The notes under the pieces: generated by a model
Told to the model about the DNA's origin: nothing
Database searches by the model: none
What the model saw: the letters and a program-made list of their open reading frames with translations, nothing else
Shown here: in pieces, positions 3,510 to 63,166 of the stretch
Layout: each line of letters starts with the position of its first letter
How positions within the stretch are numbered: the stretch's first letter is position 1
From: Eledone cirrhosa
Taxonomy: Eukaryota
Length of the DNA stretch: 64,000 nucleotides
NCBI GenBank assembly: GCA_964016885.1
Contig: OZ024761.1
Span: 13,516,001-13,580,000, forward strand
Direction: 5' to 3'
Made by a program: the position numbers and the translations under genes

Positions 3510-3724
3510 ATATATACACATATATATATATGCTAGAGTCAGCAGCAACACACAACCACGTGTTGCTACACACACACAAGAGGAAAGAGAAAATTTAAAA
3601 TTTATGAGACCAATAGAGATATGTACATTTATATATTTATATCTAGATATTGCTATCATCATTTACAGTCCCTCTGTGTTTAATGTATGTTCATTAGTAT
3701 ATGTGTTGTTATTTCTTTTTATTT

Positions 3725-4022
3725 CTGCTTGCATTTTGCATATATACATATATATATCTATATATATGCTTGCGTGGACCCCTCTCAAAATTCGTTGGAT
3801 TTTCTAATTGGATACCCCAACACTGGATACCAACACTGAATACACCTGAACTTCTACCAGGAAATCTTTCGTTGTCATTTCTGCTTGCATTTTACATATA
3901 TAGATATATATATCAATGGTTGCTTGGACCCCTCTTAAAGATTCGTTGGATTTTCTAATTGGATACCCCGAAACTGGATACCAATCACTGAATACACCTG
4001 AACTTCTACCAGGAAATCTTTC
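3725..4022. repeat. Direct tandem duplication of ~150 bp
   Basis: ggacccctct..aaattcgttggattttctaattggatacccc...ctgaatacacctgaacttctaccaggaaatctttc occurs twice. Confidence 0.85.
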
Positions 4023-4071
4023 ATATCAGTGAAAATTTTCTTTTCTTTGCTTCATATATATTATATATACT

Positions 4072-7000
4072 TGGCCGCCATTGCAAAAGGCCATAAATTC
4101 AAAATTTTGAAGAGAGAGGAAAAGAGAGAAGTGATCTATGAACTTGTAACATCTCACTGACCCCCCCGTCACCACAATAACAATAACGCCTACACTCGCT
4201 CCCCACCATCACCACATTACTCTAAGGTCGCTGTCCTGTCCCCTGTTGACATACTGCTGACTATCTTTTGATGTATGTATGTGTATATACATATGTGTAT
4301 GTGTGTGTATATGTGTATATCTCTGTGGATGCGACCAGATTTCAACACAGCAACAACTACAACAACAACAGCAGCAACACCAACAACAACAACAACAGCA
4401 ACAACACCATCGTCTGTGTTGAATGTGTGTGTATGTATTTGTATATATGCGACAGCAATAACAGCATCAACACCATTGTCTGCAGCAACAGCAGCAGTGA
4501 AATGAAGGACAACAACAACAGTAACAACTACAGCACCAACAACTGCCACCACCATCACTGACCATCCACCACCACCACACTGACACCACCACCACACTGA
4601 CACCATCCACCACCGCCATTACCAGCGTAAACAAACAATTATTATTGTTATTGTTATTATATACAAGCCGAACTGGACTGGGAAAGGTCAACAGTTGACA
4701 TGATAGTGATTTTGACGATTTTGACTTTGATTTTGATTTTGTATCAGAACTGTCGGTAATATATGTATATATATATATGTGTTTGTGAGTTGTGTGTGTG
4801 ATTGTATGCATGAATGAGTGTTGGTATGTGTGGTTGTGGTTTGTATGCATGAGTATTAGTGTGTGAGTCGTGTCAATAAGTTGTTTTTTTTTTTGTTTTG
4901 TTTTTTTTTAAATGACCATGCTGTAAAATGGAGGGGTAGAGAGGGCCCTTGAGTCTAGTAAGACATCCTCTCTAGTGCTGGTGGCACAAATAAAAGCACC
5001 CAGTCCATGCTGTAAAGTGGCGCTGGTGTTAGGAAGGGCATCCAACCAGTGTATCAACGCCAAAAAGCTTATCAGCACAGCAACAAAACAGCATAGAAAA
5101 AAATATGAAGACGTCGCATCTCAGAGTTGCAACACTTAATGTTGGCACTCTCAGAGGTAGATCTGCTGAAATAGCGGAGATGCTGGAGAGAAGGCAGGTG
5201 GATGTGTGCTGCGTGCAAGAGGTGAGATGGAGAGGTGCCTCTGCGAGACTAGTCGTAGGCAAGCGTCTTAGCTATAAGCTATTCTGGGTAGGTAAGGATG
5301 ATGGGTTAGGGGGAGTAGGCATTTTCCTGGCTGAGAAATGGATCAATAAGACAATAGAGGTAGTTCGAGTTAGTAATCGAATAATTAAGCTTAGATTAGT
5401 TGTAGGTAGGAGACTACTGACAATCATCTCGGTCTATGCTCCCCAAGCAGGCCTAGGCAAAGATGAGAAAGACTGCTTTTATGAGCAACTTTTGCAAACA
5501 ACCACAATGACAGAGGACGGAGACATCGTTATGCTAGCAGGAGACTTCAATGGTCATGTTGGACAGCTCCAGGATGGTTACACTGGGGTACATGGTGGGC
5601 ATGGTTACGGTTCAAGAAATGAAGAAGGAGTGAGACTTCTTGAATTTTGTGATGCAAGTACATTGACTATTTGCAACACAAACTTCCAGAAACCTGCCAA
5701 TCACCTAATAACCTACAAATCTGGTGAGCACATAAGCCAGATTGACTTCCTGCTAGTTAGGCAGCGGGACAGGCAGATAGTGTCTAATACCAAGGCATAC
5801 CCTGGGGAAGAATGTACCCCACAGCATAGGTTAGTTGTTAGTGATATCTCAGTAAGCAAGAGATGGAATGAGCCATATAGGAAGGTGTGGAGAAGAAAGG
5901 TCTGGAAGCTAAAAGACCTTTCACTAAAATTCAAATTTAGGAAAGCCCTTCAAGATGTATATGACGAAAAAGAAGACGATTTAGAGACGTATGACATAGA
6001 TAATAACTGGAAGTTCTTACGTGACAACTTGCTGAAGGCTACTGATGAAACTTGTGGCTGGAGCAGAGCCCCAACCAGACAGAGAGTGACCTGGTGGTGG
6101 AACAGCAGTGTAGATAAGGCTATTAGAGACAAAAGACTAGCATGGAAGGCTTGGAATAAGGGTGGGAGTAGGGAAGAATATACAGCCACTAAGAGAGAAG
6201 CTAGACGTCAGGTGTACTTAGCACGCAGGGAGGCAGAGAGTAGGAGGTTTGCCAATGTTCTGCGACGGGAAGATCAGAGGCGTGCGGTGTTCCACATTGC
6301 AAGGCAGTGTGTCAATGCAAATCAGGATGTTGTTGGTGATAAATGTGTCCGGGATGATGCCGGTGTACTTAGTGTCACGAATGACCAGAAAAAGGAGGCC
6401 TGGAAATGCCATTATGAGAGACTGATGAATGTGGAGAACGAATGGGAGAGAGAGAAATTACCCTTGGTAGATCCGACAGAGGGACCAGCTATTGAGATTG
6501 ACGAATATAGGGTCCAAGAGGCGATTAGGGAAATGAAAAATGGTAAGGCGGCCGGACCATCGGGAATAGTTGCTGAGATGCTGAAGGCATCAGGGGACGT
6601 AGGCACTAAACTGGTTGCACGCATAATCAATCAGGCTATATATGGTGGTGTCATACCCAAAGACTGGTGCAGCAGTATTCTCATAAATTGCTACAAAGGT
6701 AAAGGGGATGCTTTGGAGAGGAGCAATTATAGGGGTATAAAACTGATAGATCAGGTTATGAAAGTGGCAGAAAGGATTTTAGCACAACTAATTAGAGAAA
6801 GGGTCAAACTAGATGAGATGCAGTTTGGTTTTGTGCCTGGGAAGAGTACAACAGATGCCCTCTTCTTGGTGAGACAAATGCAAGAGAGGTTCTTAGAGAA
6901 GAATAAGCCACTATACTTGGCCTTTGTTGACCTAGAGAAGGCCTTTGATAGGGTACCCCGATCTGTCATCTGGTGGTCCCTAAGGAAGCTGGGTGTTGAG

Positions 7001-8203
7001 GAATGGCTTGTAAGGACAGTGCAAACTTTGTACAGAGGTACTCTCAGTAAAGTCAGGGTAGGAATGGAGTTTAGTGAGGAATTCCAGATACAAGTAGGAG
7101 TACATCAGGGTTCGGTCCTCAGCCCGCTCTTGTTCATTATAGTCCTCCAAGCCATAACAGAGGAGTTTAAGACTGGCTGTCCATGGGAACTTCTCTATGC
7201 TGACGATCTGGCTCTTATGGCAGAATCAGTAGAGGAGCTAGAGAATAAATTCCGGCTATGGAAACAGCAGTTGGAAGCAAGAGGACTGAGAGTAAATCTA
7301 GCTAAGACAAAAGTGTTGATGAGTAGAAAAGAGGACAAAACCCTGATTCCGTCAGGGAAATGGCCATGTTCGATATGCAGAAAAGGAACTGGCATAAATT
7401 CTATAAAATGCACACAATGTAGGTCCTGGGTACACAAGAGATGTAGCGGGATAGCAGGCAAACTAACAGGTAGGGAGAAATATGTATGCAGTAGATGTAC
7501 AGGGAAATTAGACAGTAGAAGTCGCACTGATAGACACATTTTTCAAATGCGAGAGGGCGCTATAGAAGTGGTGGATAGCTTCCGGTACCTAGGAGATCAG
7601 ATTAGCATGGGAGGAGGGTGTTCCGAGGCCATAGTATCTAGAATAAGGACGGGTTGGAAGAAGTTTAGGGAGCTGCTTCCTCTGTTGACGAAGAAGGGTT
7701 TCTCCCTGCGTACGAAAGGCCGGTTGTATGATGCCTGTGTGAGGAGCGCGATGCTGCATGGTAGTGAGACATGGGCAGCTACCGCAGAAGATATGCGACG
7801 GCTGGAGAGAAATGAGGCAAGCATGCTCCGTTGGATGTGCAGTGTAAATGTGCGTGAACGACCCAGCATAAATGTGTTGAGAGAGAAACTGTGTCTGAGA
7901 GGGATAGAATGTAGTGTACGGGGGAGGAGACTGAGGTGGTATGGACATGTGATGCGCATGGAGGATGACCGATGGGTGAAGAAGTGCCAGGAAATGCCAG
8001 TTGAAGGAAGACGTAGTAGAGGTAGACCACGAAAAACATGGGCGGAGGTGGTGAGAACAGACCTCAGATCATTGAAGCTCACGGTGGAGATGACGAGGGA
8101 CCGTGACGAGTGGAGAGATGCTGTGCTGAATAAGACCCGTCCCACCCTTGCAAGCAGGGAAAAGCGGACGTAAAATGATGATGATGATGATGATGATGAT
8201 GAT
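4072..8203 (+). mobile_element. Full-length RTE-clade LINE (family 1); 5' boundary uncertain
   Basis: Intact APE-RT ORF, RTE-type 5' UTR motif (ggtgttaggaagggcatcca), (GAT)n tail at 8176-8203; possible TSD atatatact at 4063-4071 / 8230-8238. Confidence 0.85.
5105..8173 (+). CDS. RTE LINE ORF: AP endonuclease + reverse transcriptase with internal PHD-type finger (1022 aa)
   Basis: TLNVGTL, CVQE, VYAPQ, GDFNGH, SQIDF (APE); YRGIKL, QFGF, FVDLEKAFD, GVHQGSVLSP, YADD, FRYLG (RT); C4HC3 finger at 7367-7498; no stops. Confidence 0.97.
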   Translation: MKTSHLRVATLNVGTLRGRSAEIAEMLERRQVDVCCVQEVRWRGASARLVVGKRLSYKLFWVGKDDGLGGVGIFLAEKWINKTIEVVRVSNRIIKLRLVVGRRLLTIISVYAPQAGLGKDEKDCFYEQLLQTTTMTEDGDIVMLAGDFNGHVGQLQDGYTGVHGGHGYGSRNEEGVRLLEFCDASTLTICNTNFQKPANHLITYKSGEHISQIDFLLVRQRDRQIVSNTKAYPGEECTPQHRLVVSDISVSKRWNEPYRKVWRRKVWKLKDLSLKFKFRKALQDVYDEKEDDLETYDIDNNWKFLRDNLLKATDETCGWSRAPTRQRVTWWWNSSVDKAIRDKRLAWKAWNKGGSREEYTATKREARRQVYLARREAESRRFANVLRREDQRRAVFHIARQCVNANQDVVGDKCVRDDAGVLSVTNDQKKEAWKCHYERLMNVENEWEREKLPLVDPTEGPAIEIDEYRVQEAIREMKNGKAAGPSGIVAEMLKASGDVGTKLVARIINQAIYGGVIPKDWCSSILINCYKGKGDALERSNYRGIKLIDQVMKVAERILAQLIRERVKLDEMQFGFVPGKSTTDALFLVRQMQERFLEKNKPLYLAFVDLEKAFDRVPRSVIWWSLRKLGVEEWLVRTVQTLYRGTLSKVRVGMEFSEEFQIQVGVHQGSVLSPLLFIIVLQAITEEFKTGCPWELLYADDLALMAESVEELENKFRLWKQQLEARGLRVNLAKTKVLMSRKEDKTLIPSGKWPCSICRKGTGINSIKCTQCRSWVHKRCSGIAGKLTGREKYVCSRCTGKLDSRSRTDRHIFQMREGAIEVVDSFRYLGDQISMGGGCSEAIVSRIRTGWKKFRELLPLLTKKGFSLRTKGRLYDACVRSAMLHGSETWAATAEDMRRLERNEASMLRWMCSVNVRERPSINVLREKLCLRGIECSVRGRRLRWYGHVMRMEDDRWVKKCQEMPVEGRRSRGRPRKTWAEVVRTDLRSLKLTVEMTRDRDEWRDAVLNKTRPTLASREKRT

Positions 8204-31720: not shown

Positions 31721-34700
31721 GGAAGATGCAGTAGAGGAAAACCATGAAAAACATGGGCGGAGGTGGTGAGTGCAGACCTCAGATCGCTGAAGCTGGCGGA
31801 GGAGATGTGTGTGTGCGGGAGAGAAGACTGCGATGGTATGGACATATGATGCGCATGGAGGATGACCGGTGAGTAAAGAAGTGCCAAGAAATCCCAGTAG
31901 AAGAAAGATGCTGTAGAGGAAGACCACCAAAAACATGGGCAGAGGTGGTGAGAGCAGACCTCAGATCGCTGAATAGGACCCGTCCCACCCTTGCAAGCAG
32001 GGAAAAGCGGACATAAAATGATGATGATGATGAGATAGTAACTTAACACATGGTTCTTACATAAAATTATGTTGGAAGATTTAAATTCTATTTCAATTAG
32101 TTACTGAAGAATTTTGAGTGATTTCTTAGAATTATTATTTCATTTGTGAAGTCGTGTGGCTGAGTGGTTAGAGAATTGGATTCACAATCGTGAGGTTGTG
32201 AGTTTGATTCCCGGACACAGCGATGCGTTATATCCTTCTGCATTTCATGTTACTCCTTCTGCCTGGAGTTGCGACCGGTAGATAGTATTCGCAATTGGAA
32301 AGACCAATGGAAACATTGTTTCCTCGGTCCGATTCGATGAGCTCCACCCTGGGATCTTGTCGATTGATTATCGACTTGGATAGTAACTTAACACGTGGTT
32401 CTTACATAAAATTATGTTGGAAGATTTAAATTCTATTTCAATTAGTTACTGAAGAATTTTGAGGGATTTATTAAATTTATTAATTATTTCATTACGAAGA
32501 TAGTAACTTAACACATGGTTCTACAGGAGTATGGGATTGATAGTCAGCTTCTTGCTGCCCTGATGCCAAGGACACAACAGCCTCTCTAGTGTTGCTGGTC
32601 ATCACAATAAATACACCCAGTACACGCTGTAAAGTGGTTGGTGATAGGAAGGACATCCAGCTGTAGAAAGCCTGTCAAACAAAGGGTTGGGTGGACCCTT
32701 CAGCTGTGTCAAGGACATAACAACTTCCCTAATGCACCTGGTAGAATGTGACACCCTACGTAAGCGAAATGCAGATCCCTCAGCCTGTCTGCAAGGTCAG
32801 TATCCCTACATCAGTACTGACTTTGTCTATGTAGACCTGTCCAATGCTTGCTAGCAGGGAAAGTGGATGTTAAGTGATAATGATGATGATAAATACTTTA
32901 AAACAAACAGGTGATAAAAGCTGACCTTGCTCAATTGCACCTCTCAAAGGTGATGACACAGGACCAAGACCTCTGGTGTTACACAGTAATACAGAAGACC
33001 CAAGTTCCCACAGGTACAAGCCGAAGCTGAAGCATATCGACAATATGCCCCCACGCCCTTCCCACTGTAAAGTGGTCATGTAGGCACCATGGTAAAAAAG
33101 CACCCAGCACTCACTGTAAATGATGTTGGTGTTAGGAAGGGCATCCAGCTGTAGAAATGAAGCCAAAATCAGTTCTGTATGAGCAAGACATGGTCACCTG
33201 ACTTGGCCCACAACAGGACAACCTGTCTAACCCATGCTAACATGGAGACATTGACATAAAATGGTGATGATGATGATGAGCTCTGCCCTGTGAAATAAAG
33301 GCTGGTTTCAGATGGTTTGATATCAAAACAGATAAGTAGTGACTTGATCCATTATAACCAGTCCAGCCCATGCCAACATGGAAAAGCGGACATGAAATGA
33401 TGATGATGATGTTTTATTTATTAAAGGGTTGTGTGAACCATGCAGAAAATTCCAATGGAGTAAAAATGGTGAAGTGCCAAACCTTTGCTGTTGCATTGAA
33501 GGGGATTTCCAAACTGTAATATTCCTTCTCATCAGTGGTAAATTGATCTAGCGATGTATTAGATGAGCTTTCGTTATTAATATACACAGCAATCATGAGG
33601 GACTTCAACTTCCATTTTGGCAAGCCACTACTGTGCAGAGTTACATTAAGGTTAGAACTTTTGAGAAATGACACTTGCTCAATATGAACTGGTGATAGGG
33701 GACAACTGTTGACCCTTCCTCTTGTTGGGGAACTGCTGGCCAATGGAATTAGGTGGACTTCTTCGTAACAAATAATAACATTGGATTGAACTGGTGAAGA
33801 GAAAATGTAAAAATAAACAATGAAAAAAAAAAAAATTTTATAAATGAAACTTCCTATTTATATAACCTTGTAGGAGGCCAGCTAAACCTACATAGTGAGA
33901 CCTGTAATAACATGATAGGACTGAGGTCCCCTATCATTAAAACACCCTTGAAACATCCTATTAGTGCACGAGGCCAGCTAAACCTACATAGTGAGACCTG
34001 TAATAACATGATAGGACTGAGGTCCCCTATCATTAAAACACCCTTGAAACTTCCTATTTATATAACCTTGTAGGAGGCCAGATAAACCTACATAGTGTGA
34101 GCTGTAATGATATGATAGGACTGAGGTCCCCTATCATTAAAACACCCTTAAAACATCCTATTAGTGTAGGAGGCGTGCTAAACCTACATAGTGTGAGCTG
34201 TAATAACATGATAGGACCGAGGACCCCTATCATTAAAAGACATATGGAACCTCCTTTTCAGCAGCAGTTCTTACTGATAATCAAACTTTCCAGTTGTTGT
34301 CTTCCTGTTTCTTCTACAACAACTACAACGGTACGCGATGGGGGCCACCCACAGCCCCGGCGGACAGAATGGAGAAGGCGTTTCCCTGGAGGAAGGCGAG
34401 GGAGACACGCTGGAAGAACCACTCCAACTCGCGGGGCTCACACCTGCAGCTGGCCAGCTCAGCGCCTATGGTGGTGAGTAAGGAGGTAGCCCTGGGGCTG
34501 AGGACACCAGAAGTCTCCACTGCCAGGGGTACGACCGCAAACGTGTCGGAGAGCGACCGGTATTTGAGGAGTTTGGTCCCCTCAGCCCGACGTGCAGCAG
34601 AACCTGGGTCAGTCGCAGACTGCACCAGGTTGCGGCTACAGAAAGTGTCGGTGCAAGTGGCATCCCAGACGAGGGGTTTGCCACCGCGGAAAGGAAGATG

Positions 34701-34979
34701 GTCATGCCATCTGGCCTTTTGCCGTCCCCTCGATCCAGTCCCACCGGCTCGAGCTGGGAAGGGAAGCCTGCAGGGTCCAAGCCAACCAGCTAAACTTACT
34801 TAAATGTGATCTGTAACAAAAAAATAATAATAGAGCCAGGCACTTCATTATTAAAACACCCAAGAAATCTTCTGTGAGATGTAAAGTAAACGTAAAGGTC
34901 TTTAAAAGTAAAGGTCTTTAATGGATTTCTAAGGGTACTGTCTTGAGATGGGAGAGAGATTGGCAGAAGTGTGTGTGTG

Positions 34980-41097: not shown

Positions 41098-43236
41098 ATC
41101 ATCATCATCATCATCATCATCAACGTTTAACGTCCGTGTTCCACGCTTGCATGGGTTTGGACGGGGGTAGTCCCACTTGAGGCAAGAGTGATTGTCTTGC
41201 TCGCATAGGACTGTCTGGCAGGTTTTCTACAGTTGGATGCCCTTCCTAACACCAACCACATTTACAGTGTGGGTCTGGGAGGTTTTTACCGTGTTGCCTA
41301 CACGGCCACATTACAGCGTGGACTGTGTGTTTTTTTGTCGTGACACCTACACGATCTCATTTGTTTCGGCCTGGATGGCGCGGCACCAACATAACTTTAC
41401 ATAGGACGGGGTGGTGTGGATGGGGTGGGGGTGGTGGTGGTGGGACGGGGTGTATTTTGTTAGAGATGCCTACTGGCTGGAGTAGGTTTTACTATATATT
41501 TAGGTAAGGCGGGTCTTCTCTGTTACTGAGTACCGCCAAAGGTCTCGGTCCAGTGACATTGTCTTGGAGAGGTGTAAGTGTGTGAGGTCGGAGTTTATCA
41601 GCTCGTCCCAGGTTTTTCTAGGTTTGCCTATTCCGTGGCTACCGTCTATCTTTATTGCCCTGCACTTTGTTATACAGCTATCGACTTTCATGCGCATCAC
41701 GTGTCCATACCAACGTAGCCTTCTCTCGAGTAAACAGCATCTGATCCCTCTTATCTCTAATTCTTTCCTTAGTTCGTTTATGCTTTGCCGTTCACGTATA
41801 TTACTGTTACACATCCAGCGGAGCATGCAAGCTTCGTTCCTCTCTAGTCTGCGTATATCCTCTGCACACAATGCCCATGTCTCACTGCCATGCAACATTG
41901 CTGTTCGTATGCAGGCATCGTACAACCTGCCTTTCATTTTTAGGGAGAACCCATTAGCAGCTAATAGTGGTATAAGCTCTCTGAACTTTTTCCAACCAGT
42001 TCTGACTCTAGCTACAGTACTTTCAGAGCACCCTCCCCCACTGCTGATTTTATCGCCCAGGTAACGGAAGCTGTCCACTATTTCTATAGAACCCTCTGCG
42101 CAATTGAAAGAGCTAGTATTTTGTGGGCACTTGCTGCTACTTATTGCACCAGAACACCGGCCACATGTAAAATCTATGTTCTTAGTTAGCTTACCTGTGA
42201 TCCCACTACATCTTTTATGCACCCATACTTTGCATTTAGGACATAAAATGGAGTTTCTACCTACGCCTTTCCTACACACCGAGCACGACCATTTCCCAGA
42301 AGGGACCGCCGCCTTGTTTTCTTTCCTACAAACTAGAACTTTGGTCTTAGCCAGGTTAATTTTAAGTCCTTTTGACTCTAGGCCGTGCTTCCATGTTTGG
42401 AATTTCTTCTCTAGCTCAGCCATTGATTCCGCTATGAGTGTCAGGTCGTCTGCGTATAGGAGTTCCCATGGGCAGCCTGTCTTGAACTCCTCTGTTATAG
42501 CCTGAAGGGCAATAATAAATAGTAGGGGGCTGAGAACAGAGCCCTGATGGACGCCAACTTTTACGCTAAACTCTTCACTATATTCGTTGTTAATTCTAAC
42601 CTTGCTGACTGTTTCTTTATACATGGCTTGTATAGCCCTCACAAGCCATTCGTCAACGCCTAGTTTTCTAAGAGCCCACCAGATAATGGAGCGGGGGACT
42701 CTGTCGAAGGCTTTCTCCAAGTCGACAAAAGCTAAGTAGAGGGGTTTACCTTTAGCTAGGTACTTCTCCTGTAGTTGTCGTACTATGAAAAGAGCGTCTG
42801 TGGTACTTTTGCCTGACACAAACCCGAACTGCATTTCATCTAGGTCAATTCTCTCTCTGATTAGTTGCGCTATTACTTTTTCCGTGACCTTCATGACCTG
42901 GTCGATTAATTTAATGCCTCTATAGTTACTCCTATCTAGGGCGTCTCCTTTACCCTTATAACAGTTAACGATGATGCTGCTATGCCAGTCCTTCGGAACA
43001 ACCCCATTCTGTACGACTTGGTTAACTATGCGGGTGACCATGGTGTGTCCCACCGTGCCAGATGCCTTCAGCATCTCAGCAACTATTTCCGAAGGCCCAG
43101 CCGCCTTACCCGTCTTCATATCCTTGATTGCCTTACTTATTATACTCCCCTCAACTAACACTGCTGGTCCCTCTATTGGGTCGATATGGGGGAGACTGTC
43201 TTTCTCCCATTTATTCTCCTCATTTAGTAGCCATAT
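41098..43236 (-). mobile_element. 5'-truncated RTE LINE (family 2), RT frame still open
   Basis: ORF to 41500 with QFGF, FVDLEKAFD, YADD, PHD finger, FRYLG; ~400-bp 3' UTR and (GAT)n tail. Confidence 0.95.
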
Positions 43237-43257: not shown

Positions 43258-43556
43258 ATAGCCCACACTGTAAAGTGATCGTGTAGGTGTCACAGCAAAA
43301 AGTTCCCAGCACACACTGTAAAGTGGTCGTGTAGGTGTCACAGCAAAAAGTTCCCAGCACACACTGTAAAGTGGTCATGTAGGTGTCACAGCAAAAAGTT
43401 CCCAGCACACACTGTAAAGTGGTTGTGTAGGTGTCACAGCAAAAAGTTCCCAGCACACACTGTAAAGTGGTCGTGTAGGTGTCACAGCAAAAAGTTCCCA
43501 GCACACACTGTAAAGTGGTCATGTAGGTGTCACAGCAAAAAGTTCCCAGCACACCC
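43258..43556. repeat. 48-bp tandem repeat, ~6 copies, derived from an RTE UTR motif
   Basis: cacactgtaaagtggtcgtgtaggtgtcacagcaaaaagttcccagca. Confidence 0.92.
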
Positions 43557-43679
43557 TGTGTCAATATTTATATACATATATAAAAAGTTCCCAAATATAT
43601 GTATATAAATATTGACACGTTGGTATTGTGTTAAGCCTGCGAAAAGCGTGGAACATGGACGTTAAACGATGATGATGAT

Positions 43680-47180: not shown

Positions 47181-47870
47181 GGAAAAGACAAAAAATATCA
47201 AGGCTAGAACAAGCCAAAATTCAGAAGAATCGAGAAATAGAAAAATAGAAATTTAAAAGTTACATTATAAGATATAATATGTAGGTAATATAAAAGCAGG
47301 ATAAGGGGGCAAGATCTAGGATGTTGTGACATAATTAGATTACAGGTAACTAAGAAAGGGCACTTAATTACTAATAGGTAAAAACTTATAAAATTAAAAA
47401 CAGACCCGATAATGTGTAAAAAAGAATATTTCGGAAAATTATCCAGGAAAGACGTGTCAAACCTAATAGGGTACATTGGTACATAAAAACTATAGGGCAA
47501 GAGAGCAAGCAAACATTAAAATAGCCACGTTAAAAGTACAATATAAGTCCAATACTCGAAATACAACATAGTAATATAATCCGAGAAATAAGATATAAAA
47601 AATATAATATAATATACAATACAATGCAATATATAATACAGAAATAAAATTTAATATATATATATACACGCACACTCACACACATATATATACACACACA
47701 TACACATACACATATTAACACAAATATATATATATATGCACCATAATAGAATAATCACCCTGACGGTGTGATTAAACAATACTAAAATCAAAGAAATATT
47801 GACAATAAAAAAATATTGACATTAATATTGACATTATATATATATATGTATATATATATATGTGTATATA

Positions 47871-47911
<41 letters not shown>

Positions 47912-47919
47912 GTATATAC

Positions 47920-47976
<57 letters not shown>

Positions 47977-47977
47977 C

Positions 47978-48024
<47 letters not shown>

Positions 48025-48071
48025 CATATTTATATATATACATATATATATATATACATATATATATATAC

Positions 48072-48136
<65 letters not shown>

Positions 48137-48206
48137 CATATATGTATATACATATATATACATATATATATATATATATACATATATGTATATACATATA
48201 TATACA

Positions 48207-48238
<32 letters not shown>

Positions 48239-48255
48239 CAGATATATATATATGC

Positions 48256-48322
<67 letters not shown>

Positions 48323-48335
48323 CATATATATATAT

Positions 48336-48868
48336 AACTTTGAATAACTTTGAAATGTTTTGGCCAGTATTGGCCCAGGCTATGTCTAACTTAATAGCAC
48401 CACCTGGCGAAGTCTTTCAATTCAGGATTTGGGTACCATGGCCCATTCGAGAAGAGAATTACTGTTTGCGGAGACATATCCGGGTGTGGGTGGTTTGTCC
48501 GGGATTACTTGGAGGAATTTGTCCAAAGACTTCTTGAATTTTGTGTGGTCAGTTTCTGTTTTGACGTGTCCTGGTGTGATGTTGAAGAGAGCAGGGCCGA
48601 TTGAGGTGAAATAATTGTGCCGTATTGTTGTTATGAGTTGCGATTTAGATTTTTGTATGGGACGGATAGCACGGGGCCCAAGCCTTGGGTGTATCTTGAA
48701 GGCGATGCCAACATCATTTGGGCAGTGATGATGGAACATTTTCCACATCATGCAGATAATATAACGCTCACGGCGACGTTGGAGTGAGTAAAGTTTCAGC
48801 TTTTCTAGTCGACCCCAGTAGTCAATGTCTGACATGCCATCTATCTTTTTCGTGATTGCCCTTTGAGG

Positions 48869-48870
<2 letters not shown>
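48336..48870 (-). mobile_element. CR1/L2-group LINE 3' fragment
   Basis: [31 protein letters not shown]...LFNITP...FKKSLDKFL; (ttcaaagtta)n tail. Confidence 0.85.
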
Positions 48871-48902
<32 letters not shown>

Positions 48903-48939
48903 ATATATATGTACATATATGTATACATATATATGTACA

Positions 48940-49025
<86 letters not shown>

Positions 49026-49082
49026 CATATATATACATATATATATGTATATATATATACATATATATACATATATATATAC

Positions 49083-49121
<39 letters not shown>

Positions 49122-49146
49122 CATATATATATACATATATATATAC

Positions 49147-49241
<95 letters not shown>

Positions 49242-49254
49242 CATATATATATAC

Positions 49255-49307
<53 letters not shown>

Positions 49308-49533
49308 CATATATATATACATATATATATATATATACATTATGTAGATAAATCTACCAAGAGTTTACGGTAGTGTCCAATCCGTATGAAGAACTCAATG
49401 TATTCCGGATATCATGGAAAGAAGAGATGTAATGAAAAACCACTTTCGGTGAAAGATAAACGGTATACAGAGTCAAGATAAAATATTAAACAAATAATGA
49501 ATAAACAATTCCTTATATTAAACAAAAAAAGTT

Positions 49534-49684: not shown

Positions 49685-50014
49685 TATGTATATATATATG
49701 TATGTATATATGTATGTATATATATATGTATGTATATATGTATGTATATATGTATGTATAGATATATATATATATATATATGTATGTATATATGTATGTA
49801 TAGATATATATATATATATATATATGTGTATGTATATATGTATGTATATATATATGTATGTATATATGTATGTATATATATATGTATGTATATATGTATG
49901 TATATATATATGTATGTATATATGTATGTATATATGTATGTATATATGTATGTATATATGTATGTATATATGTATATATATATATGTGTATGTATATATG
50001 TATGTATATATCTA

Positions 50015-50523
50015 AAAAGAAAGGAAAAAAAAAAAGAAAAAAAAAAACTCAAAATAACAAAACACACACACACACACACACAACGGAACAACAACATCAA
50101 CTGCCACCACCACCACCACCGCCACCGCCGTCGCCATCACCATCACCAGCGACCTGGCCTTAAGAACAACTTTAATAATAATTTTTCTGCGTTTGGCACG
50201 GATCCAGCGACTGGCCAGCGCATCACTGGTACTCTCTTTTGTTGACTCCGTGGAGAGCCATAACTCTATGCTGTAAAGCAATTATAGTAATACTGGACTG
50301 TAATACGATCGGCTTCAACTATACAAACTCTTGAAAGTCAACAGTTGACATAATCTGGTAATCTTGTATCAGTAATGACGGTAATATATATATATATATG
50401 TGTGTGTGTGCGTGTAAGTGAGTAGAGTAGCGTGTGTGTGTGTTTGTTGTGTGTGTGAGTGTTGCTGTGTGCACGCATATGTATGCGTGTGTGTGTATGT
50501 CGTACGTATAAGTGTCAATAAGT

Positions 50524-50565
<42 letters not shown>

Positions 50566-50866
50566 GCGGGGACATAGAAATAATCGGGCTGGATGCCCGA
50601 TCGCGCAGTTAAACCACTGGGAGTGAAGAACCCCTAGCCCATGTCAGGGTATTCTTCTAGGAGAAGGCATCTCAGGAAACTGGGTTAACTCCGATATAAA
50701 ACCTGCGGCTCAGTAGTTACCGATGATGTTGATCTTTTCTTCTTTTCGGGTTATAGCTACTGTCGCTCAGAGAGTGGGATTGGTTCAGTGCACAGTCTTT
50801 CCTCACTTTAAAAATATTCGTCACGCACAGGCATTGCACGAGTGCATTAATAATTATTAATAGTGT

Positions 50867-50901
<35 letters not shown>

Positions 50902-50906
50902 TATTA

Positions 50907-50948
<42 letters not shown>

Positions 50949-53900
50949 CCCCAATTCAATAATGTTCCAGAACAATGTAAACGAGATAATTGGCAATTTG
51001 GGTTCTGGAACAAAAAAGATCATTGGCAATAAGGGCAGGGGCCCCAAGTTATCACAACCTGGGCCCGCCCGTCATCGTGCCATTGTAATAGAGCCAAACA
51101 GGGCATTTAGTCTTGGCTGCTGGAACGTACGGACGCTGCTTGACAGGGATTCTTTGGAGCGTCCTGAACGAAGGACCGCTCTTGTTGCGAAGGAGCTTCG
51201 ACGTTACGATCTTGACATCGTGGCTTTGTCTGAGACGAGGTTAGCTGGAGATGGTCATCTTACGGAATTTTGTGGAGAATATACATTCTTCTGGAAAGGA
51301 AGAGATGAAGGAACCAGAAGAGAGGCTGGGGTAGGATTTGCTGTTAAGACTGTACTGGTGAATAAATTGGAAGAATTCCCAGTGGGGATTAGTGAGCGTC
51401 TTATGTCCATGAGAGTTCCGCTGGACAAGGGAAGATATGCTACCCTGGTGAGTGTGTATGCTCCAACTATGAATTCTGTCGATGAAGAAAAACTGTCCTT
51501 TTACCATGCCTTGAAAGGTGTTTTAAGAAATATCCCTCAGGCAGACAAAGTCATCGTGCTTGGTGACTTTAATGCTAGAGTGGGTAGGGATTTTAACACA
51601 TGGAATGTAATCGGAAGGCATGGGGTGGGAAAGTGTAACAGCAATGGTATGCTCTTGCTGCAGATGTGTGAGGAGCTGGATCTGTGTGTTACCAACACCA
51701 TGTTCCAACAAAAGAACAAATTCAAGACCACATGGATGCATCCTGCATCTAAGGAATGGCATCTTTTGGACTACGTCCTAGTCAGGATGCGTGACAGACA
51801 GGATGTGCGGTGTGTTCGTGTTCTTCGTGGAGCTGAGTGCTGGACGGACCACCGCCTGGTACGCGCAAAAGTGAATCTAATCACCAAACGTAAAATCCGG
51901 GCTCCTGGTGTTACCCTGCCCAAAAGATTGAATGCTGCTCGTCTTAAGGATAAAAATGTGAAGAGGACATTGGAAGAAGAGATGCAGGCTGCAGATCTTG
52001 GTGAGGATTGGCCGACCCTTAAAAAGTCGGTTTATGATGTAGGCAGACGTGTTCTGGGATTGGTGCAGAGAAAACATCAGGACTGGTTTAATGAGAAAGA
52101 TGTGCATATAGATGACTTGTTGGCTGATAGGAGGCGCGCTCTGTCACGCTACTTGACGGCAAGACCACAGGAGAGGAATACGTTGCATGAGGAGCTCAGG
52201 GATGTAAAATCACGTGTTAGGCGGAGTCTTTCTCAGATGAAGGATCAGTGGTGGAGTGAGAAGGCTGGTGAGATACAAACTGCGTCTGATTGCAATAACA
52301 CAAAGCTGTTGTACAGTCTCTTGCGTGAGGTTTATGGACCGTCTTCTTCTCTGGTGACACCGATTCGCAGCAAGGATGGCAAAGAACTTCTTCGTGACTC
52401 ACAGGGAATTCTACGAAGGTGGCGGGAGCACTTTGATGATCTTTTGAATCAGCCGTCTGTCGTCAGTGAAGATTTCCTCAATCTCATTCCGGAAAGTCCT
52501 GTGAAAGTAGCTCTCGCAGAGCCTCCGACACTTGTGGAGGTTGCAGTGGCTATTTCGAAGCTGAACAGTGGAAGATCTCCAGGTATGGATGGCATACATG
52601 CTGAGCTCCTACAATATGGTGGTGAGAGACTCCTGCAACATCTTCACTCTCTGTTTGGAAGGATATGGGCTAATGAATCCGTGCCTGAGGACTGGAGAGA
52701 TGCAGTAATGGTGGTCTTGTACAAGGGAAAGGGTAACAGGAATGATTGTGGGAACTACAGAGGTATATCATTGCTTTCTGTCGTGGGGAAAGTTTTATGT
52801 AGGGTGCTTCTGGACCGTCTGCTGACACACATTGCAGATTGTGTCCTTCCTGAAAGTCAATCTGGTTTTCGTGTTGGACGCGGCACTACTGATATGATCT
52901 TCTCAGCTAGACAGCTCCAGGAGAAGTGCATTGAACAGGGCTTGGATCTGTATCAGGTTTTTGTCGATCTGACAAAGGCTTTCGATACTGTCAACAGAGA
53001 TGCATTATGGAAGGTTCTCCAGAAACTTGGTTGCCCTGATAAGTTCCTTGCTTTAGTTAGGTCTTTCCATGACGACATGAAGGCTTGGGTTAATGTCGGA
53101 GGTAACATGTCGGAGCCTATCTCAGTAAAAAATGGAGTGAAACAGGGGGATATTCCAGCACCGACCCTGTTTGCCATATACTTTGCAATGGTTTTCTGTA
53201 TTGCATTCAGGAATTGCGAGCATGGTGTTTACATCCGATATCGAACCTCAGGCAGCATATTTAACATCAGGCGCTTTGCTGCGAAGACAAAAGTATTTAC
53301 ATCAGTCATAAGAGACCTCTTGTATGCAGATGATTGCGATCTTGTAGCGCACACAGAGAGTGATATGCAGCACATTTTGAATGTATTTTCTGACGCTTGC
53401 ACTGCCCTGGGTTTGACTGTCAGTCTCAAGAAAACCGTCGTCATGTACCAACCTGCACCTGGTAGGCAGTACACTGAACCAAACATCTATGTGTATGGCA
53501 AACGACTTGGAGTGGTTGATCAGTTTGTCTACCTGGGAAGCACTGTCAATCGATACGGCAACCTTGACAGTGAAATCTCACTTAGGATTAGGAAAGCAAG
53601 TGATGCTTTCGGAAAGCTAGAAAGGCGACTCTGGGGTCGGCGAGACATATGCAGGAGGACAAAGGTAAAGGTGTACAGGGCATGTGTACTCTCTTGTCTT
53701 CTTTATGCCTGCGAGACCTGGGTCACATATCGACGCCACCTTAAGCAATTGGAGCGTTTCCATCAGATGTGTCTCAGACGGATACATGGCGTTCGCTGGA
53801 GGGACCACATCAGTGATGTCGAGATTTTGGAAAGCTCTATGTGTGACAGTATAGAAGCTCTTGTGCTTAAGCAGCGACTCCGTTGGAGTGGTCACCTTGC

Positions 53901-54512
53901 CAGGATGAAGGATTCTAGAATACCAAAACAACTCTTCTATGGAGAGTTGGTTAAAGGAAAACGACCGCCACATAAACCAAAAAAGAGGTATAAGGATTCC
54001 TTGAAGGCCTCTCTGAAAGACGCTAACATCTCTGCTGATACATGGGAAAATATTGCTGCTGATCGTAATAAATGGAGAAAGACTGTATATGAGGGAAAAG
54101 TTGCCTTTGAGGCATCTCGAATCGCACACGAGAAAGTAAAGCGGGACGTGAGGAAGGGTATTGCTGTTGCACTTCCAGACGGCGAGGGTCCTCCTATGTT
54201 TCTGACATGCAGCGTCTGTGCGAGACTCTGCCTAAGCAAAGCTGGACTCGAAAGTCATCTTCGCAGTCATAAAGTAAGACCAGTGGTTGACTACCAGGCT
54301 GCTGTTGGAGATGCTACTCATCATGCTTGCCAAACATGTGGTAGAGAATGTAAATCAGCAGGAGGACTCAAGCGACATGCAAAAGTACACGAACTCCAAC
54401 CACAGCCGACTATTCCCAGTAAATGTTTTGGTTGCCGACTCTGTGCAAGACATTTTGGATCATTGGCTGGGCTAAAAAGCCACATTCGATCGCAGCACTG
54501 TTAGTTGCTATC

Positions 54513-54552
<40 letters not shown>

Positions 54553-54631
54553 GCTTATGTGCCTGCGTGTGTGTGTATATATATATGAATGTGTATATTA
54601 TTATTGTTGTTGTCGTTATTATTATTATTGC

Positions 54632-54704
<73 letters not shown>

Positions 54705-54710
54705 TTATTT

Positions 54711-54741
<31 letters not shown>

Positions 54742-54779
54742 GTGCAATGGCCATACTCGATAACGAGGGGGCAGCCATC
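50015..54779 (+). mobile_element. Full-length RTE/BovB-like LINE with 9-bp TSD ATATATCTA
   Basis: TSD at 50006-50014 / 54780-54788, supported by the empty-site copy at 55893-55901; RTE 5' motif ctaggagaagg...aactccgatataaaacc. Confidence 0.9.
50962..54504 (+). CDS. RTE/BovB-like ORF: APE + RT + three C2H2 zinc fingers (1180 aa)
   Basis: WNVRTL, LSETR, VYAPT, GDFNARVG, LLDY, TDH; YRGISLL, QSGFR, FVDLTKAFD, GVKQG, YADD, FVYLGS; three CxxC-x12-HxxxH fingers; no stops. Confidence 0.97.
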   Translation: MFQNNVNEIIGNLGSGTKKIIGNKGRGPKLSQPGPARHRAIVIEPNRAFSLGCWNVRTLLDRDSLERPERRTALVAKELRRYDLDIVALSETRLAGDGHLTEFCGEYTFFWKGRDEGTRREAGVGFAVKTVLVNKLEEFPVGISERLMSMRVPLDKGRYATLVSVYAPTMNSVDEEKLSFYHALKGVLRNIPQADKVIVLGDFNARVGRDFNTWNVIGRHGVGKCNSNGMLLLQMCEELDLCVTNTMFQQKNKFKTTWMHPASKEWHLLDYVLVRMRDRQDVRCVRVLRGAECWTDHRLVRAKVNLITKRKIRAPGVTLPKRLNAARLKDKNVKRTLEEEMQAADLGEDWPTLKKSVYDVGRRVLGLVQRKHQDWFNEKDVHIDDLLADRRRALSRYLTARPQERNTLHEELRDVKSRVRRSLSQMKDQWWSEKAGEIQTASDCNNTKLLYSLLREVYGPSSSLVTPIRSKDGKELLRDSQGILRRWREHFDDLLNQPSVVSEDFLNLIPESPVKVALAEPPTLVEVAVAISKLNSGRSPGMDGIHAELLQYGGERLLQHLHSLFGRIWANESVPEDWRDAVMVVLYKGKGNRNDCGNYRGISLLSVVGKVLCRVLLDRLLTHIADCVLPESQSGFRVGRGTTDMIFSARQLQEKCIEQGLDLYQVFVDLTKAFDTVNRDALWKVLQKLGCPDKFLALVRSFHDDMKAWVNVGGNMSEPISVKNGVKQGDIPAPTLFAIYFAMVFCIAFRNCEHGVYIRYRTSGSIFNIRRFAAKTKVFTSVIRDLLYADDCDLVAHTESDMQHILNVFSDACTALGLTVSLKKTVVMYQPAPGRQYTEPNIYVYGKRLGVVDQFVYLGSTVNRYGNLDSEISLRIRKASDAFGKLERRLWGRRDICRRTKVKVYRACVLSCLLYACETWVTYRRHLKQLERFHQMCLRRIHGVRWRDHISDVEILESSMCDSIEALVLKQRLRWSGHLARMKDSRIPKQLFYGELVKGKRPPHKPKKRYKDSLKASLKDANISADTWENIAADRNKWRKTVYEGKVAFEASRIAHEKVKRDVRKGIAVALPDGEGPPMFLTCSVCARLCLSKAGLESHLRSHKVRPVVDYQAAVGDATHHACQTCGRECKSAGGLKRHAKVHELQPQPTIPSKCFGCRLCARHFGSLAGLKSHIRSQHC

Positions 54780-62271
<7,492 letters not shown>

Positions 62272-63166
62272 AGAGTGAATCTAGCTAAGACAAAAGTGTT
62301 GATGAGTAGAAAAGAGGACAAAACCCTGATTCCGTCAGGGAAATGGCCAAGTTCGATATGCAGAAAAGGAACTGGCATAAATTCTATAAAATGCACACAA
62401 TACAGATCCTGGGTACACAAAAGATGTAGCGGGATAGCAGGCAAACTAACAGATAGGGAGAAATATGTATGCAGTAGATGAACAGGGAAATTAGACAGTA
62501 GAAGTCGCATTGATAGACACATTTTTCAAATGCAAGAGGGCGCTATAGAAGTGATGGATAGCTTCCAGTACCTAGGAGATCAGATTAGCATGGGAGGAGG
62601 GTGTTCCGAGGCCATAGTATCTAGAATAAGGACGGGTTGGAAGAAGTTTAGGGAGCTGCTTCCTCTGTTGACGAAGAAGGGTTTCTCCCTGCGTACGAAA
62701 AGCCGGTTGTATGATGCTTGTGTGAGGAGCGCGATGCTGCATGGTAGTGAGACATGAGCAGCAACTGCAGAGGATATGCGACGGCTGGAGAGAAATGAGG
62801 CAAGCATGCTCCGTTGGATGTGCAGTGTAAATGTGCGTGAACGACCAAGCATGGATGTGTTGAGAGAGAAACTGTGTCTGAGAGGGATAGAATGTAGTGT
62901 ACGGGAGAGGAGACTGCGGTGGTATGGACATGTGATGCGCATGGAGGATGACCGATGGGTGAAGAAGTGCCAGGAAATGCCAGTTGAAGGAAGACGTGGT
63001 AGAGGTAGACCACGAAAAACATGGGCGAAGGTGGTGAGAACAGACCTCAGATCATTGAAGCTCACGGTGGAGATGACGAAGGACTGTGAAGAGTGGAGAG
63101 ATGCTGTGCTGAATAAGACCCGTCCCACCCTTGCGGACGTAAAATGATGATGATGATGATGATGAT
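62272..63166 (+). pseudogene. 5'-truncated, mutated copy of RTE family 1
   Basis: Highly similar to 7289-8203 with in-frame stops; (GAT)n tail; (TA)n on both sides. Confidence 0.95.

Follow-up and report, generated by a model that had tools for sequence, protein, structure and literature searches.

How did two LINEs (long interspersed nuclear elements) of different lineages come to begin with the same sequence? The question is raised by a stretch of 64,000 nucleotides of the Eledone cirrhosa genome (GenBank assembly GCA_964016885.1, contig OZ024761.1, positions 13,516,001 to 13,580,000, forward strand; hereafter the window), in which two RTE-type LINEs, here called families A and B, carry the same short sequence islands in the same order ahead of their open reading frames (ORFs). 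A sequence-only reading of this DNA had pointed out these islands and had taken both ORFs as intact and of different lineages. Both statements held: the proteins (1022 and 1180 aa) are 26% identical and fall into two separate, well-supported lineages of a reverse transcriptase tree (100/100 and 98/99), each with a chordate-annotated entry, the tree including no named RTE element. The islands are the remnants of one 5' leader of ~1.15 kb that is common to two young LINE families, and a hybrid subfamily together with two trees supports its movement between the lineages, a swap that the earlier reading had proposed as one of two explanations. Taken as a whole, it is fairly probable that the leader is a part of the A and B copies themselves, was acquired by A from B through the hybrid form, and acts as an internal promoter.

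A leader inside the copies of both families

Homology between A and B begins near position 4068 and is longer than the islands listed earlier, all of which were recovered at their positions; the island at 4180-4212 had been overlooked because the B copy of the window is truncated. Older A copies have the same 5' terminus as B, therefore the shared region was once the whole leader of ~1.15 kb. Exact matches to a 13-mer (4687-4699 and 50337-50349) and to the 12-mer of the last island (4870 and 50512) occur in the window only at these places, as had been reported for the module. The 13-mer had been described as a palindrome and is exact in both copies, but its two 6-bp arms are separated by one unpaired base. 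A 9-mer listed as a further conserved island (4672 and 50292) is absent from old B copies and from the hybrid copies described below, and is therefore a case of chance convergence.

The central 15-mer of the leader has 1,448 matches in the genome (reversed control, 0). All the matches sampled, 60 of the first 68 listed on contig C1 (six of the omitted eight had been seen in earlier samples and two were skipped), lie in A- or B-type leaders (18 A, 42 B) and none stands alone; 54 run on into the untranslated region (UTR) of their own family and six are cut or interrupted. A sample taken from the start codon, comprising 30 among 920 B copies and 30 among 970 A copies, gave the same picture from the other side, with 21/30 B and 17/30 A copies extending into the leader and one more A copy ambiguous; two B and four A copies stop in the T run, the remainder are shorter or interrupted, and no alternative upstream UTR recurs among the 30 B copies. 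The start of full-length B copies is fixed to the nucleotide (265 exact termini), and young A is represented by 29 further copies that are 96-99% identical to the one in the window. In these samples the module is neither a mostly stand-alone repeat nor missing from the other long copies of the two families.

The second explanation put forward earlier, that a multicopy host promoter or a stand-alone repeat lying upstream drives LINE source loci, would fit the look of the leader, which with its microsatellites and SINE-like (short interspersed nuclear element) relic resembles ordinary host DNA, so that its ultimate origin may be the host. The leader, however, is internal to each copy, starts sharply at a 5' end that the copies have in common and is never stand-alone in the sample, and it is 96-100% identical within the young families while the flanks differ at each locus; the host-promoter reading is therefore not supported and is extremely improbable. 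No third body was found behind the leader in the 20 retrieved sequences related to a hybrid leader, and a third family with the whole leader, sought with exclusion patterns and samples, was rejected as these returned only A, B or one chance match. A tandem array of ~3.3-kb units in which an old B 5' end is joined to unrelated sequence was observed at G000:C1:296.78-296.84 Mb (L129-L135, L536-L542).

The islands had also been regarded as selected cis-elements. Identity runs of nine or more exceed those in shuffled sequences (7 observed against 1.9, p=0.0004) in a test that is biased in that the blocks had been cut at the islands, and this excess lends weak support to possible selection on them; the longest run is not significant against shuffles (p=0.11), and over its full length the leader changes as fast as synonymous sites or faster, by about 21-25% between lineages. 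Between hybrids and old A, 38/328 sites changed in the 5' block against 20/366 or 12/414 fourfold sites of the ORF (p=0.004 and 3e-6; four leaders, L498 included), an excess that could reflect fast evolution or further, unseen recombination.

The hybrid subfamily and the direction of transfer

The oldest A subfamily, traced from three A copies with a longer segment ahead of the ORF, is a hybrid that consists of the leader, the T run, the 300-bp UTR proper to B, a TTA-repeat tract, the UTR proper to A and the A ORF. The junction pattern has 65 matches in the genome, and the B UTR lies upstream of it in 58 of the 61 copies examined; of the other three, L484 retains the last ~55 nt of the B segment and L498 is devoid of it, the third being L404. 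Five copies (L470, L471, L489, L546, L548) span the element from the 5' terminus through both UTRs. Contigs of three other organisms covered only short repeat stretches and weigh neither way on expression; among the contigs listed, none bridges the junction.

An ORF tree rooted on family C, the sister of A (63-64% identical, with an unrelated UTR of ~650 bp), places the hybrid first, followed by a form with the B segment deleted, old A and young A, with end branches that shrink in that order (support 99/93 for old plus young A and 100/97 for young A; L177 and L180 were too short to be included). In the leader trees, built on the first 340 bp without L156, L561 and L563, the hybrids branch one after another on the way from B to old A; some of the automatic labels in these trees need correction, as L498 is marked hybrid although it has lost the B segment, and inserted repeats led to wrong labels for L553 (an old B) and for L558 and L562 (deleted-form A). 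The junction retains the end of the B repeat tract even in deleted copies, which have two different breakpoints. The order of the subfamilies is thus shown, as is the subsequent loss of the B segment between two T-rich tracts. Family C itself is present in the window at 41500-43215 (minus) and at L433 and L435; it has a long 3' UTR, which a 48-bp array at 43260-43559 resembles.

The transfer was likely from B to A. One join suffices to build the hybrid, the leader is already present in old B copies, whose ORFs share 90-92% identity with those of young B, and one old B copy with the leader (L518) shows outgroup states that are absent from nearly all hybrids. A copies that precede the capture were not encountered among the six matches examined. 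Two routes can be envisaged: A would have inserted into the TTA-repeat tract just before the start codon of B, or its reverse transcriptase would have switched template onto that tract, and both are possible. The promoter of B would then have driven an A-coding RNA, the founder of all later A subfamilies. The tract is a recurrent insertion site, and an R2-like LINE, which we take to be Dong/R4-like, has entered it repeatedly in antisense orientation (L524, L529, L543, L544); these four loci were considered as a new leader-bearing family and discarded, the body behind the B repeat tract being that antisense insertion.

Several points weigh against this account. The tree of the 300-bp segment proper to B gives no direction, with hybrids and the oldest B copies in one polytomy and younger B inside the hybrids (the nesting of B within hybrids in a first sample arose because that B sample was young). 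Exclusion patterns and samples returned no source of the leader before B, and pattern searches overlook diverged copies, so that an older owner could be unseen. Past the first bases, no significant similarity links the B terminus to that of young A or of family E, the donor discussed below. Lastly, the leader as an internal RNA polymerase II promoter is a predicted role, read from sequence alone.

In the reverse course, A would have owned the leader first, a piece of the B UTR would have been inserted into it, and recombination over this common piece would then have brought the leader into B. The polytomy with younger B inside the hybrids fits this course, and so does L498, which has the most B-like leader among the A copies of one leader tree and no B segment; recombination across the B segment does occur, as L534 joins the head of a non-autonomous element to a B ORF. 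However, three events and an unseen ancestor would be required, the junction of L498 retains the end of the B repeat tract, the hybrids branch off first in the rooted ORF tree, and the leader is already in place in the old B copies mentioned above. This course is accordingly judged unlikely, and the passage of the leader from B to A is preferred.

The non-autonomous element is abundant (L440, L446, L063; high depth) and consists of a different RTE-like head, a microsatellite, the B UTR and the B 3' tail. In 16/30 matches, the segment and tail of B stand behind this other head, and the boundary coincides with the T run, an indication that B itself once began there and gained the leader earlier from another source.

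A second replacement and the possible role of the leader

The first ~540 bp of young A are not found in old A. Their first ~200 bp match the terminus of another LINE, family E (77% over 205 columns, E-value 4e-39), and this E-type module replaced the older B-type terminus in young A. Family E is older, its copies being 78-94% identical to each other over long colinear blocks, and has a non-coding leader of its own (~2 kb, with an internal duplication) and a decayed R2-like ORF (L283, L284, L287). In this ORF the reverse transcriptase is followed by a zinc knuckle and a restriction-like nuclease motif, the arrangement of the restriction-endonuclease type; L287 is colinear with residues 21-914 of P0241, the best solved relatives of which are R2 proteins. 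Family E presumably belongs to the CRE clade. Two loci taken up as candidate host promoters (L216, L233) proved to belong to family E, and an E-type 3' fragment lies in the window at 34350-34783 (minus). For the 151-bp tandem duplication that is specific to young A, no origin was found.

A further family, D, resembles both E and young A over their first ~60 bp, with a score reached in 0/2000 shuffles. A two-part pattern has 109 sites, and among the matches listed (100) 87 are of A/E type and 13 of D type. Family D has a two-ORF layout with apurinic/apyrimidinic (AP) endonuclease and reverse transcriptase domains and sits on a long branch in the reverse transcriptase tree; we take it to be CR1-type from its motifs, and read its ORF1, likewise by presumed labels, as a Myb-like start, a polyQ stretch and two CCCH-like motifs. 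One D copy (L171:4950-9600, minus) carries the first 29 nt of B and lies head-to-head with a B copy. The CR1-type body behind these 29 nt (L160/L171) was rejected as a family, being a chimera of one locus while 39 other matches start later; this one-off chimera indicates that 5' joins between clades happen here. A more general scheme, tentative and on balance doubtful, is that four LINE lineages in three clades (two RTE-type, one R2-like, one CR1-type) share a pool of swappable 5' promoter modules, that each capture founds the next dominant subfamily, and that the leader, once captured, evolves at two to four times the rate of synonymous sites, which would be expected if swapping and rapid change serve escape from host silencing.

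A promoter role is hinted at by the 5' end, which stays fixed across successive subfamilies, and by the CG that B, old A and young A share at +27/28, extended to CGTG at +27-30 in young A only; these numbers are counted from the 5' end of the element, not from a mapped transcript start. A downstream element close by, at +25-28, has been described for LINEs (PMC4748587). Alternatively, the capture is real and the leader would be a neutral passenger, with transcription reading through from host promoters in the flanks and the islands as the residue of slow decay. The divergence of the leader, the chance nature of the 9-mer and the self-cleaving 5' ribozymes reported for RTE elements (PMC5786205) would agree with such a passenger. 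Against it, read-through alone does not give the one exact 5' end kept by successive subfamilies, and the terminus that replaced the older one likewise came from a LINE 5' end. As to ribozymes and other non-coding RNAs, no Rfam family matched L018 or L054 at threshold, only microsatellite matches falling below it, in a search that included no structure descriptors. The passenger view is quite improbable, and a promoter remains the preferred role. A strong splice-donor-like site at about +43 (L054, L141) is kept in the B and old A termini and lost in young A; splicing of the leader from this site in B and old A was considered and dropped, with spliced copies at 0/12 pattern matches.

The features of both elements in the window are collected in Table 1. 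An AT microsatellite of 7.5 kb (54780-62272) lies between the B tail and an inverted, truncated A copy, and LINE ends in this genome often bear inverted duplications (L063, L066, L079/L300, window 47788-49340), as from twin priming or fold-back.

Table 1. Features of the family A and family B elements, in positions of the window.
Feature	Position	Strand	Remarks
Family A, RTE-type LINE, young subfamily	3531..8203	+	~44 nt of 5' end missing
A terminal module	3532..3745	+	homologous to 5' end of R2-like (restriction-endonuclease type) family E
Tandem duplication, 151 bp	3721..4022	+	young-A-specific; single unit in L227
A portion of leader shared with B	4068..4910	+	islands, microsatellites, final T run
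Best-kept island, 33 bp	4180..4212	+	2 differences from young B
Near-palindromic 13-mer, A copy	4687..4699	+	
Last island and T run	4870..4910	+	site where A lineage lost the UTR proper to B
Short UTR proper to A	4911..5104	+	
A ORF, intact, 1022 aa	5105..8173	+	AP endonuclease, reverse transcriptase, PHD finger
Family B, RTE-type LINE, young subfamily	50014..54780	+	~650 nt of 5' end missing
B, 3' half of shared leader	50014..50563	+	13-mer 50337-50349, last island 50512-50523, T run
Decayed antisense SINE-like relic in B leader	~50175-50280		SINE label presumptive
UTR proper to B	50564..50865	+	recurs in hybrid A copies and in the differently headed non-autonomous element
TTA-repeat tract and T run ahead of B start codon	50866..50948	+	hybrid junction; recurrent insertion target
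B ORF, intact, 1180 aa	50962..54504	+	AP endonuclease, reverse transcriptase, C-terminal C2H2 fingers

Comparison with known systems

Families A and B have the layout of RTE elements, namely one ORF that encodes AP endonuclease and then reverse transcriptase, the lack of an ORF1 and a 3' tail of short tandem repeats, and we take them to be RTE-type from this domain layout and from motifs. Their 5' UTRs are ~1.6 kb in young A and young B, with family-specific parts of 200-400 bp, and depart from the short 5' UTR that is a typical, non-strict trait of RTE elements (PMC13174262). Among described elements, RTE-2_OV of Octopus vulgaris resembles B in its single ORF, C2H2 finger, UTRs of ~600 nt and microsatellite 3' UTR, a likeness by description, and differs in the length of its protein (1109 against 1180 aa); the accessible text mentions no shared leader (PMC9115989). 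The leader motif had no match in the supplementary files of that paper that were searched. In a literature search outside subscription journals and Repbase, neither this case nor the passage of a leader from one RTE lineage to another came up.

Modular 5' ends are known from two other groups. In trypanosomatids, Pr77 is one 5' sequence carried by several non-LTR (long terminal repeat) elements, with CGTG near +25 to +28; it is 77 nt long, occurs in the accessible account in the L1Tc/ingi group and its derivatives only, and has demonstrated promoter and ribozyme activity (PMC4748587), whereas here a leader of ~1.15 kb, known from sequence alone, moved between lineages. Bipartite non-autonomous RTEs and the RTE-derived bodies of SINEs are built of modular pieces of RTE 5' UTRs and gain new heads by template switch (PMC5786205). 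The UTR and tail proper to B form such an element in this genome; the products described in the accessible part of that work are non-coding (PMC5786205), while here the 5' UTR was joined to another autonomous LINE that came to dominate its lineage.

The closest parallel is mammalian L1. How LINEs acquire promoters is an old question, for which mammalian donors are mostly unknown and intermediates missing: mouse L1 has undergone 11 replacements of its 5' UTR, with sequence drawn from older L1 families or from sources that are unknown (PMC3600994), and transitional intermediates are lacking in mammals (PMC13174262). In both systems a single-lineage ladder of subfamilies received new 5' ends, with template switching or recombination at insertion sites proposed for L1 (PMC3600994, PMC13174262), and the mark of L1-type recruitment, a conserved ORF behind a replaced 5' end, was found in the A ladder. 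The exchange reported for L1 in the accessible texts took place within L1 families or from unknown donors (PMC3600994, PMC13174262), whereas here donor and recipient share 26% protein identity, ~65 copies of the hybrid form persist and the second donor is R2-like. For the classification of repeats this means that similarity of 5' UTRs misleads, and for the host that A and B likely share the control of their expression. Datable copies survive of the donor, of the hybrid, of the trimmed form that followed and of the second replacement, in an exchange that crosses such distant lineages and even the type of endonuclease, a rarely preserved record of a LINE gaining what is probably a new on-switch. 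Relative to the recruitment known from L1, what differs in E. cirrhosa is that donors are identified, intermediates are preserved and the exchange spans deep lineages.
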